DNA of 64,000 nucleotides from a phage. The position numbers and the translations under genes are program-made. Position 1 is the stretch's first letter, and every line of letters begins with the position of its first letter. Of the stretch, positions 25,927-64,000 are shown piece after piece. The notes below the pieces were generated by a model that saw only the letters and a list, made by a program, of their open reading frames with translations, searched no databases and was not told the DNA's origin. The DNA is taken from the sequence record PZ445431.1. The stretch is one strand, 5' to 3'.

Positions 25927-26000
25927 ACATCCATAGCTCAATTGGTTAGAGCTACCGCCTCTTAAGCGGTAGGTTCTAGGTTCAAGTCCTTCATTGGAGA
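25927..26000 (+). tRNA. tRNA-Lys-like (anticodon CUU); acceptor/T stems imperfect
   Basis: Canonical D-arm GCTCAATTGGTTAGAGC and anticodon arm ACCGC-CTCTTAA-GCGGT; acceptor pairing poor by eye. Confidence 0.4.
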
Positions 26001-26010
26001 CCAAACAATT

Positions 26011-27615: not shown

Positions 27616-27688
27616 GGGCGAATAGTGTCAGCGGGAGCACACCAGACTTGCAAGTCTGGTAGGGAGGGTTCGAGTCTCTCTTTGTCCA
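27616..27688 (+). tRNA. tRNA-like gene with non-canonical anticodon loop (6 or 8 nt around TTGCAA)
   Basis: Acceptor GGGCGAA/TTTGTCC (two G-U), D-stem GTGT/ACAC, stem CCAGAC/GTCTGG, T-arm GAGGG-TTCGAGT-CTCTC, encoded CCA. Confidence 0.45.
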
Positions 27689-27706
27689 CCAAATTAAAAA
27701 GAATGC

Positions 27707-28253: not shown

Positions 28254-28769
28254 ATGCTAACACAACAAGAATTAAAATCCGTGTTGTTATATAAACCAGA
28301 TACTGGAGAGTTTTTCTGGAAATATAGATCTGATTTAGATAGTCAATGGAATAGTAAATATGCTGGAACTAGGGCAGGATTTATTAATGAACTAGGCTAT
28401 TGGAAGATAACTCTAGGAAATACTAGCTGGTTAGCACATCGTCTAGCATTCTTATACATGACTGGGGAAATACCAGATCTAATTGACCACAAGGATCAAG
28501 ATAAGTCCAATACTAAATGGGATAACTTACGAATAGCCACTGTATCACAGAATCAGGCTAATGCTAAATTAAGGGTAGATAATACCTCTGGGTACAAAAA
28601 TGTAACTTGGCATAAGCAAAGAAATAAGTGGAAAGTAGAAGTACGTAAAGATGGCAAACTCCATTATGGTGGACTTTTTACAGAACTAGATAAAGCTGTA
28701 AATAAAGCTAATAATCTTAGACGTGAGTTATTCGGGGAATTTGCAGTATATGAAGAGTTTATGGGGTAG
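28254..28769 (+). CDS. HNH homing endonuclease with AP2-type DNA-binding domain
   Basis: Same architecture as 6957..7472 (ELK..LYKPDTG.F.W, IDHKDQDKSNTKWDNLR, AP2-like SGYKNVTWHK); stop lies inside the next tRNA acceptor stem. Confidence 0.8.
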   Translation: MLTQQELKSVLLYKPDTGEFFWKYRSDLDSQWNSKYAGTRAGFINELGYWKITLGNTSWLAHRLAFLYMTGEIPDLIDHKDQDKSNTKWDNLRIATVSQNQANAKLRVDNTSGYKNVTWHKQRNKWKVEVRKDGKLHYGGLFTELDKAVNKANNLRRELFGEFAVYEEFMG

Positions 28770-28856
28770 GTCAATCCAACGGCTGGCGCTGGACTCCGAC
28801 TTGAAATCGGTTGATCGTAGTGATACGGTGTAAGGGTTCGATCCCCTTACCTACCT
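28765..28856 (+). tRNA. tRNA-Ser (anticodon UGA), type II
   Basis: Perfect acceptor GGTAGGT/ACCTACC, anticodon loop CTTGAAA, long variable arm, T-arm AAGGG-TTCGATC-CCCTT, encoded CCA. Confidence 0.7.
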
Positions 28857-28879
28857 CCAATTAACTATAAGGAATCCTT

Positions 28880-29060: not shown

Positions 29061-29191
29061 TGGAATATGCCGGAATTGGTAGACGGGACTGCCGAATAGG
29101 TTTACTAGGAACATCCACTCCTAGAAATATACCTTAAAAGCGGTTGAGTTAAATGGTATAACTCATGAAGGTTCAAGTCCTTCTATTCCTT
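29061..29191 (+). tRNA. tRNA-like element of abnormal length (about 131 nt, or 85 nt from alternative 5' end); possible insertion-containing or degenerate tRNA
   Basis: Leu-like D-arm TGCCGGAATTGGTAGACGGG near 5' end, perfect T-arm GAAGG-TTCAAGT-CCTTC at 3' end, acceptor candidates pair 6/7, no encoded CCA. Confidence 0.3.
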
Positions 29192-29403: not shown

Positions 29404-29432
29404 TTGCCTTCTCTCTTATTTCTTGTTATTAT
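29404..29432 (+). promoter_or_regulatory. early promoter variant (TTGCCT-N17-TATTAT)
   Basis: -35 at 29404-29409, -10 at 29427-29432. Confidence 0.55.
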
Positions 29433-29963: not shown

Positions 29964-30037
29964 GCTTCGGTAGCTTAGCGATCTAAAGCACTCGGCTGAT
30001 AACCGAGAGATCGGGGGTTTAAATCCCTCCCGGAGTA
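29964..30037 (+). tRNA. tRNA-Ile (anticodon GAU)
   Basis: Acceptor GCTTCGG/CCGGAGT (two G-U), anticodon arm CTCGG-CTGATAA-CCGAG, T-arm GGGGG-TTTAAAT-CCCTC, encoded CCA. Confidence 0.65.
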
Positions 30038-30058
30038 CCAAATTTAGGAAGTAAGACT

Positions 30059-30133
30059 ATGCGTCCAGGAAAGTTTAAAAAAAAAAAAAAGCTAATTGGT
30101 CTAAAGAGTATAAAGAATATTTACTTAGTCTAG
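30059..30133 (+). CDS. possible mini-ORF (24 aa) containing an A14 homopolymer
   Basis: ATG after TAGGAAG; translation MRPGKFKKKKKLIGLKSIKNIYLV; coding status doubtful. Confidence 0.2.
   Translation: MRPGKFKKKKKLIGLKSIKNIYLV
30077..30090. repeat. A14 homopolymeric tract
   Basis: 14 consecutive A between tRNA-Ile and the third CAU tRNA. Confidence 0.95.
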
Positions 30134-30144
30134 TAAAACATAAT

Positions 30145-30217
30145 AGTTAGTTGGCAGAGTGGTTATGCACCTCCTTCATACGGAGCGACTACAGTGGTTC
30201 AAATCCACTACTAACTA
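30145..30217 (+). tRNA. tRNA with CAU anticodon (third copy)
   Basis: Perfect acceptor AGTTAGT/ACTAACT, anticodon loop TTCATAC, T-arm AGTGG-TTCAAAT-CCACT, encoded CCA. Confidence 0.6.
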
Positions 30218-30258
30218 CCATAAAAAAGAGCTAGAGATAGCTAAATATAGGAGCAAGT

Positions 30259-30453
30259 GTGTTAACTGTTAAAATAATGTCTGCAAATGGTGGTGAAGAA
30301 ATTCATGATGGTAATAGCGTAGGATTTAATCCTAAAAATAAGAGTATTCATGTCTCGGGATTAGATCAAGCCATATTCCTAAAAGAGGATGAAGTCGCCT
30401 ACGTTATGAATCAGAACGGTAAAACAGTTTCTGTTTACTACGGTAAGCTGTAA
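30259..30453 (+). CDS. hypothetical protein (64 aa)
   Basis: GTG/ATG start after TAGGAGC. Confidence 0.45.
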   Translation: MLTVKIMSANGGEEIHDGNSVGFNPKNKSIHVSGLDQAIFLKEDEVAYVMNQNGKTVSVYYGKL

Positions 30454-30820
30454 AGAACAGAGGATCAGGTCATTGTACCAGATCCTGCTGAGAAGAGAGT
30501 CCACATTCTATAAATGGCCGGGCGTGACAGCAGGAAGTAGACTGCAACTCCATGCTATCCAGGAGTATAAATGTAGAAGCTAAGACTTTAGATAGCCATT
30601 GTCTTAGCGTGAGCAATCACGTAGTTGCAACAGACCTGGAAGATCGCAACGTTAAAATCAAAGCTCCTGTGCTTATTAAACTGAATGGGACTATCAATCC
30701 ACAAGCCGGACTACGAGCGATTATCGGGTATTCACTTAATAAGCAAGCCTGCCTTCCAGTTTTTATCTTGCTTCTGGGTTAACAAAAAGCTGAGCCAAAT
30801 TCTAACATCAGGGAGATCTA

Positions 30821-63518: not shown

Positions 63519-64000
63519 ATGGCAAATGATGTATTAGTTCCCGATCTCATGTCTCCCGAAGGCATGGATGTTATTGAAGCCTATTTACAGTGCGGTAGTG
63601 ATGTTCCTGCCGCCGCTCGTAGTCTTGGAATGTCCGAGATTGCATTCCGTGATATAATGAATCGTGGGGAAGTTAAAAACTATCTCAACGATATCTTTAT
63701 GGAAAGTGGCTTCCGTAATCGTGACCGCTTATTCGGAGTTCTTGACGAAGTTATCAAGCGTAAGCTGGAAGAACTTGAAGAAACTGGCATGGGTTCTGAC
63801 CAGGATATCATGGATATTCTCTGGAAGGCGCACAAGATGAAGATGGAAGAAATGAAAATGATGGTAGAACTGGAGAAAGTGAAGGCAGCAGCCCGTACTC
63901 CGGCTAACCAGACTAATATTCAGAATAATATTATTGCTGGAAGTGGTGACGAAAACTATATGAATCTTATTACCGCTCTAGCAGGAGGAGGTAAGAGATA
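63519..64000 (+). CDS. putative terminase small subunit-like protein, partial (3' end beyond window)
   Basis: AGGAGGA RBS; N-terminal helix-turn-helix-like segment ([21 protein letters not shown]) and charged coiled-coil region. Confidence 0.4.

Follow-up and report, generated by a model that had tools for sequence, protein, structure and literature searches.

Long runs of A or T are known to give rise to heterogeneous mRNAs and to be hypermutable during replication, and Baranov et al. (2005, PMC1088944) regard such a run as 'purposeful' only where homologues have retained its length. Transcriptional slippage by the Escherichia coli RNA polymerase requires at least seven T residues, and more if the run consists of A (PMC6260861), and at iterated AAA codons the ribosomes of E. 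coli pause and slide (PMC4363877). The slipperiness of the heptamer A_AAA_AAG is established for dnaX (PMC1851650).

A locus of the type considered here has been described in the curated record of the tRNA region of phage 5 (GenBank accession number AJ604531), in which the homologous stretch lies within a transcription unit bounded by promoter P11 and terminator ter2, which comprises ORF 2.19, ORF 2.19.1, tRNA-Ile, ORF trn 2.20, tRNA-Met and ORF 2.21. ORF trn 2.20 is annotated there with its own ribosome binding site (RBS), and this frame, which includes a run of six A residues (A6), encodes 27 aa (MRPGKFKKANWSKEYKEYLLSLVKHNS). In BF23, JLBYU40 and a small number of further records this frame is listed as coding for a hypothetical protein, and most genome records leave it unannotated. 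The product of the A6 version matches phrog_17200, a family listed as 'unknown function', over positions 1–27, i.e. the whole profile, with an E value of 3.4e-23.

The window, which is the whole 64,000 nt stretch of DNA that was analysed, was found to be 100% identical in this region to Escherichia phage TrudiRoth (GenBank accession number MZ501109.1) over 1601 nt, A tract included. TrudiRoth (Bas30) is a T5-like phage (Demerecviridae, Epseptimavirus) from the BASEL collection, and the short reads of its genome, obtained on an Illumina NextSeq 550, were put together by the Geneious assembler at 50–100x (PMC8594841). ARAGORN identified 21 tRNA genes in the window, which make up the kind of accessory tRNA region that T5-like phages typically have. 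Two of them, tRNA-Ile with anticodon GAT (coordinates 29964–30040; Rfam tRNA score 64.7 bits; identical to the copy in Salmonella phage S113) and tRNA-Met with anticodon CAT (coordinates 30145–30220; 51.5 bits), both located on the + strand like the features between them, form the upstream and downstream boundaries of a spacer of 104 nt in TrudiRoth. Both of these tRNAs are annotated in MZ501109.1, yet no CDS is annotated in the spacer.

The spacer houses an ORF of 24 codons that begins with an ATG at 30059 and ends with a TAG at 30131–30133. It is preceded at a distance of 9 nt by a Shine-Dalgarno-like AGGA (30046–30049), the equivalent position of which is annotated as the ribosome_binding_site of ORF trn 2.20 in AJ604531. 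The codons are ATG CGT CCA GGA AAG TTT, four successive AAA, AAG, CTA and so on up to the TAG, with fourteen consecutive A residues (A14) at 30077–30090, and the translation is a product of 24 aa that includes five consecutive lysines (MRPGKFKKKKKLIGLKSIKNIYLV). Direct reading and translation of the sequence thus bear out what the initial annotation had described, namely an A14 run within a 24 aa, five-lysine ORF between two tRNA genes. An ORF of this size is in itself unremarkable, as 72 ORFs of at least 20 aa overlap the surrounding 4 kb. The next-longest homopolymer in the window is 6 nt, A14 is the sole run of at least 8 nt in the 314 kb of T5-like DNA inspected (the whole TrudiRoth genome included), and runs of at least A14 are expected ~0.019 times per window under a first-order Markov model, which makes the tract a marked statistical outlier.

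The length of the tract was examined in related phages. In Salmonella phage S113, the closest relative, the 257 nt segment made up of tRNA-Ile, spacer and tRNA-Met is identical except for a gap of 8 A, leaving A6, and one substitution. The segment matched 515 phage records, 229 of which span the spacer, and among the 60 top-ranked of the 229 and a sample spread over the ranking, a span of 257 nt was found only in TrudiRoth, with the others spanning 248–250 nt. The sister T5-like phages SuperGirl, DaisyDussoix and HildyBeyeler from the BASEL collection span 249 nt, consistent with A6. A6 together with a 96 nt spacer was present in all 21 IMG/VR contigs (T5 itself among them), which were selected solely on their tRNA flanks and thus without bias on the spacer, and A6 was also present in all seven metagenome contigs and in T5, BF23, phage 5 and S113.

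Overall, A6 was found at 31 of the 36 loci examined, and the comparison of tract lengths that the initial annotation had called for does reveal differences between genomes, with A5, A6, A7 and A14 all occurring. A7 is found in KS_S14, and A5 in Kenya-K15 and in GE_vB_N5, an 'UNVERIFIED' record in which G and C runs in tRNA-Ile are shortened as well. The indel in Eps7 is an additional A following the G. These rare variants represent occasional single-step indels or sequencing errors. None of the intermediate lengths A8–A13 was seen in any relative compared, and the locus had no match in 185,579 genomes of bacteria and archaea that were scanned. On the sequences compared, the family is characterised by A6, and TrudiRoth alone has A14. 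As the long run occurs in one phage only, with A6 in nearly all of the ~229 GenBank records, the 21 IMG/VR contigs and the seven metagenome contigs, the site, judged by the conservation of run length (PMC1088944), is not one of conserved programmed slippage or of phase variation at the level of the family.

The A14 run corresponds to the ancestral A6 (codons Lys7–Lys8) with 8 nt added. As the additional 8 nt shift the frame after Lys8, the TrudiRoth product keeps only residues 1–8 of the family, and it matched phrog_17200 at positions 1–8 only (E value 0.25) rather than over the full length. The ORF at 30059–30133, read by translation and by this match, is a frameshifted allele of the conserved mini-ORF. 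The 24 aa ORF with five lysines therefore reads as originally reported, but it is not a native product, being derived from a conserved 27 aa ORF that has two lysines at this point. The ancestral C-terminal coding part (ANWSKEYKEYLLSLVKHNS followed by TAG; coordinates 30091–30150, + strand) shares 100% nucleotide identity with S113 and is in the -1 frame with respect to the ATG, and it ends in AGT TAG, 6 nt with which tRNA-Met begins. The TrudiRoth frame stops 17 nt before the ancestral stop, 11 nt short of tRNA-Met. The order of features at the locus, tRNA-Ile(GAT), RBS, ATG, ORF and stop overlapping tRNA-Met, is that of the orthologous locus in S113, phage 5, JLBYU40 and others.

When every tract length from 4 to 18 was translated in silico, lengths divisible by 3 (A12, A15) were found to give products of 29–30 aa in which four to five lysines precede the ancestral tail, lengths with a remainder of 1 (A13, A16) to give stubs of 11–12 aa, and those with a remainder of 2 (A14) to give the product of 24 aa. 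Were the true length A15 or A12, the tail would thus be in its original frame, altering the interpretation as a frameshift. From its sequence and coordinates, the end of the run and the following G make up the heptamer A_AAA_AAG (30085–30091, + strand), which is in register with the zero frame of the TrudiRoth ORF and is a predicted dnaX-type -1 slippery sequence. Relatives read TTT AAA AAA GCT at this position, such that the in-frame A_AAA_AAG is absent and no shift is needed. Judging from this alignment, the heptamer is a creation of the expansion, and a -1 slip on it would restore the ancestral frame.

A tblastn search with the 27 aa peptide, covering 50,697 phage records at E <=10, found it in 229 records, in 119 of them with at least 99% identity, and at least 80% of the peptide aligned in one frame in 223 of the 229. 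The same search produced no match outside the T5-like locus or within a longer protein, and the possibility that the mini-ORF is the remnant of a homing-endonuclease gene was dropped, as no longer parent protein was detected. Among 15 haplotypes, the ratio of synonymous to non-synonymous changes was 7:7 in the 27 aa frame, where ~35% synonymous is expected for transitions, and 4:10 and 3:11 in the other two frames, and the common polymorphisms are all at third codon positions of the 27 aa frame. This test leans weakly towards coding and is not significant, and the evidence suggests, but does not establish, that the 27 aa ORF is truly coding. The 5' 28 nt of the ORF are invariant, third codon positions included, in 24 sequences retrieved by tRNA flanks alone, and this may reflect a constraint at the nucleotide level. 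The ancestral stop codon TAG (30148–30150) forms nucleotides 4–6 of tRNA-Met, hence processing by RNase P would strip the stop codon from the spacer RNA.

In many T5-like phages, e.g. Salmonella phage faergetype, a sequence-unrelated tRNA-Ile(GAT) is followed by a spacer of 7 nt without the mini-ORF. The mini-ORF is missing from more than half of the related phages, and the existence of this alternative tRNA-Ile module in many relatives indicates that it is facultative. Two alternative modules were accordingly distinguished 5' of the same tRNA-Met: that found at 29964–30144, which in its usual form consists of this tRNA-Ile(GAT) and the 96 nt mini-ORF spacer, and that of faergetype (333–414 of its segment), which consists of the unrelated tRNA-Ile(GAT) and 7 nt. 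The module breakpoints lie between ...CCAAATT and ATAGTTAGTTGG.

Other features of the tRNA region were also recorded. A promoter scan identified a candidate sigma-70-like promoter (TTGCCT-17-TATTAT with a TG; coordinates 29404–29432, + strand), which by consensus match and annotation transfer is the positional equivalent of P11, annotated just 5' of the homologous ORF trn 2.19 in AJ604531 and heading a mixed mRNA/tRNA unit in the phage 5 record. An ORF of 64 aa with a GTG start at 30259–30453 has a strong match to phrog_3909 (E value 3e-35). S113 (as orf105) and other relatives have this ORF annotated; the TrudiRoth record lacks it and calls an ORF of 76 aa at 30552–30782 instead. A tRNA-Ser(TCA) that overlaps the 3' end of a homing-endonuclease gene in the GenBank record (window coordinates 28765–28859; record coordinates 79735–79829) was reported by neither ARAGORN nor Rfam. 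A tRNA-like match at 29123–29191, which may be a degenerate tRNA, scored 23.9 bits in Rfam and was below the threshold of 29.

At 27616–27691, ARAGORN reported 'tRNA-???' with the four-base anticodon tgca, where GenBank has tRNA-Ala (GCA). Compared with tRNA-Ala from Citrobacter phage CitS1, the gene has an extra G immediately 3' of the anticodon region, giving either an anticodon loop of 8 nt (CTTGCAAG) or a 6 bp stem with a 6 nt loop, and a C-to-T change is found in the T stem too. Either this tRNA gene is in decay or it is a candidate for a frameshift-suppressor-like tRNA, and the extra base in the anticodon loop is another nearby sign of relaxed constraint. A link between the 8 nt loop and the frameshift in the mini-ORF was rejected, as quadruplet decoding gives +1 and restoration of the frame needs -1 or +2.

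The window and MZ501109.1 are not collinear, as 979 nt are missing from the former (junction at 25928–26003; record coordinates 75982–76903). The missing segment, which in the record contains a CDS, tRNA-Gly and two further CDSs, lies between two tRNA-Lys(CTT) paralogues that have a 57 nt identical core in common. The tRNA-Lys at the junction in the window is a chimera with the 5' acceptor strand of copy 1 and the 3' strand of copy 2, and its acceptor stem is unpaired. The difference is due either to a recombination deletion variant or to collapse of the repeat in another assembly. The last 482 nt of the window (63519–64000) are identical to bases 1–482 of the record, in the small terminase gene, and the window therefore represents the genome in circularly rotated form.

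Taken together, it is likely, with a probability of about 0.6, that the tract arose by a lineage-specific expansion through replication slippage, with a length correct to ~±1, in a mini-ORF that is facultative and probably dispensable, and that it is an ordinary mutation, likely neutral, which causes a leaky frameshift. The comparison with relatives shows an expansion that is lineage-specific on present genomes and that frameshifts a conserved micro-ORF, at a site with occasional ±1 variants elsewhere. The pre-existing A6 would have expanded stepwise in the ancestry of TrudiRoth or in the laboratory stock, with each added A predicted to raise the likelihood of the next slippage step. It speaks against a stepwise path that the change from A6 to A14 takes several steps via out-of-frame intermediates; if expansion was stepwise, the phage lineage must have tolerated them, in keeping with an ORF that is dispensable. 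The addition of 8 nt would then have led to the 24 aa peptide with its unrelated tail, while the ancestral tail survived in the -1 frame. A neutral effect or a mild loss of function is probable because the mini-ORF is absent from so many related phages.

T5-like phages transcribe their genes with the host RNA polymerase, and the E. coli enzyme should yield transcripts of mixed A-length from this template. By our comparison, A14 exceeds the requirement for slippage by that polymerase, and ribosomes should likewise slide on the A run. Transcripts with A12 or A15, or a -1 slip, would yield some product in which the ancestral tail follows four to five lysines. Noisy expression is expected because the tract is so long, and the frameshift is predicted to be leaky because the ancestral frame is regained either in an A12/A15 transcript or through a -1 slip on A_AAA_AAG. 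At the DNA level, the tract should be hypermutable and the stock heterogeneous in length. The view that this is a slippage-prone spot is thus a fair one in that both polymerases and ribosomes tend to slip on a run such as A14 (PMC1088944, PMC6260861, PMC4363877) and lengths do vary, but the long tract is present in one phage only.

An artefact of sequencing or assembly was also considered, such that the true phage has A6 or another length and the consensus was over-called, or such that the run is long but is A15 or A12, adding in-frame lysines only. The A14 state is known from a single genome with one deposited record, an exact look-up of the neighbouring 68 aa protein found the GenBank record only and no independent contig, and the assembly was built solely from Illumina short reads. 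Homopolymers this long give length errors of ±1–2 after library PCR, and some of the records with deviant lengths, such as GE_vB_N5, look error-prone. However, Illumina errors seldom add 8 bases, and as no other inflated homopolymer, i.e. no other run of at least 8 nt, is present anywhere in the TrudiRoth genome and the sister BASEL phages from the same pipeline are A6-like, systematic inflation by the method is argued against. The window is evidently also a different assembly from the GenBank record, given the rotation and the missing 979 nt, and A14 is found in both. An artefact therefore appears unlikely, although the length may be wrong by ±1, which would alter the frame. We give somewhat less credence to the proposal that the spacer is untranslated and that the A run acts, if at all, at the level of DNA or RNA, for example by DNA bending or as an A-rich site for RNase E or Hfq through which the tRNA-Ile/tRNA-Met precursor is processed differently. 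A location of the stop inside tRNA-Met, where RNase P would be expected to leave a non-stop fragment, is awkward for a real gene, the ORF is unannotated in most genome records, and the invariance of its 5' end even at third positions hints at a nucleotide-level constraint. Against this, the common polymorphisms all fall on third positions of the 27 aa frame, and no Rfam family was found between the two tRNAs at E <=1, no fold better than shuffled sequence was predicted for either the A14 or the A6 spacer (z about -0.8), and no + strand promoter or terminator was detected in the spacer by a promoter and terminator scan, leaving a non-coding role unsupported. A role of the A run as an UP-element or terminator was dropped on the same scan.

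Selection of the run as a hypermutable or slippage-based switch, tuning a micropeptide through three products of 11–12, 24 and 29–30 aa, is considered very unlikely. It would be consistent with the position of the tract early in an ORF with a predicted RBS, with the defined short products given by all three downstream frames and the intact ancestral tail in the -1 frame, with the existence of A5 and A7 variants elsewhere, and with the resemblance of the in-frame A_AAA_AAG and an upstream AGGA (30067–30070) to the dnaX arrangement. However, tract length is not conserved, with A6 in nearly all homologues, contrary to what is expected of a purposeful run (PMC1088944), and the downstream structure is weak: a predicted hairpin starts ~4 nt past the tract, and the fold of the whole spacer (-12.1 kcal/mol; z -0.78) was equalled in 42 of 200 shuffles. 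The ancestral tail, identical in S113, may be kept simply because the expansion is recent, and the peptide is without known function and absent from many relatives. Slightly more remote is a scheme in which the putative micropeptide ORF, with its stop codon in the acceptor stem of tRNA-Met, is translated so as to couple translation to processing of the tRNA-Ile/tRNA-Met precursor, with A14 serving as a hypermutable 'dimmer' over the three peptides and its length kept where noise or down-tuning would be advantageous on the host.

The biological weight of a neutral slippage expansion is small, and the locus provides a clean example of frameshift by homopolymer expansion in an accessory phage micro-ORF. 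The exact length of the A run is a position worth verifying in the Bas30 reference, and the deposited TrudiRoth genome is without annotation of the conserved mini-ORF. A14 beside the A6 sister allele in S113 offers a handy natural test case for RNA polymerase slippage and ribosome sliding in T5-like infection. The mini-ORF itself, with its stop inside a tRNA and its conservation in ~220 phage records, poses a slightly more interesting question than the A tract.

The TrudiRoth locus shares individual features with several known systems. Like the sites of programmed transcriptional slippage in the A9 runs of IS elements and in Thermus dnaX, it has a run of at least nine A within an ATG-initiated coding frame, and like the -1 site of E. 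coli dnaX it has an exact in-frame A_AAA_AAG, a heptamer of the X_XXY_YYZ type, with an AGGA ~14 nt upstream. Unlike these sites, the length of the run and the heptamer signal are not conserved in relatives, there is no convincing downstream hairpin, and conserved dual products are not known. The contingency tracts of bacterial pathogens are similar in that a long mononucleotide run near the 5' end of an ORF sets the frame by its length, but in the present case the long tract is in one genome only and no link to a surface structure or host interaction is known. A further parallel is provided by pseudo-pseudogenes (PMC1088944) and the similar case of Citrobacter tssM (PMC4256274), in which an out-of-frame allele at a long poly(A) is likewise accompanied by an intact downstream frame, and errors of +1 or -2 in transcript length would restore the TrudiRoth frame. 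Indels in pseudo-pseudogenes are rescued by polymerase infidelity. In TrudiRoth there is no evident selective need for rescue, as the ORF, 27 codons long and without known function, belongs to an accessory region. The run in ORF trn 2.20 of phage 5 and BF23 (GenBank accession numbers AJ604531 and AJ604530; phrog_17200) is A6 rather than A14, and the TrudiRoth product diverges from that of ORF trn 2.20 after residue 8, but the two share the same locus, RBS, ATG and first eight codons, and the nucleotides downstream are 94–100% identical.
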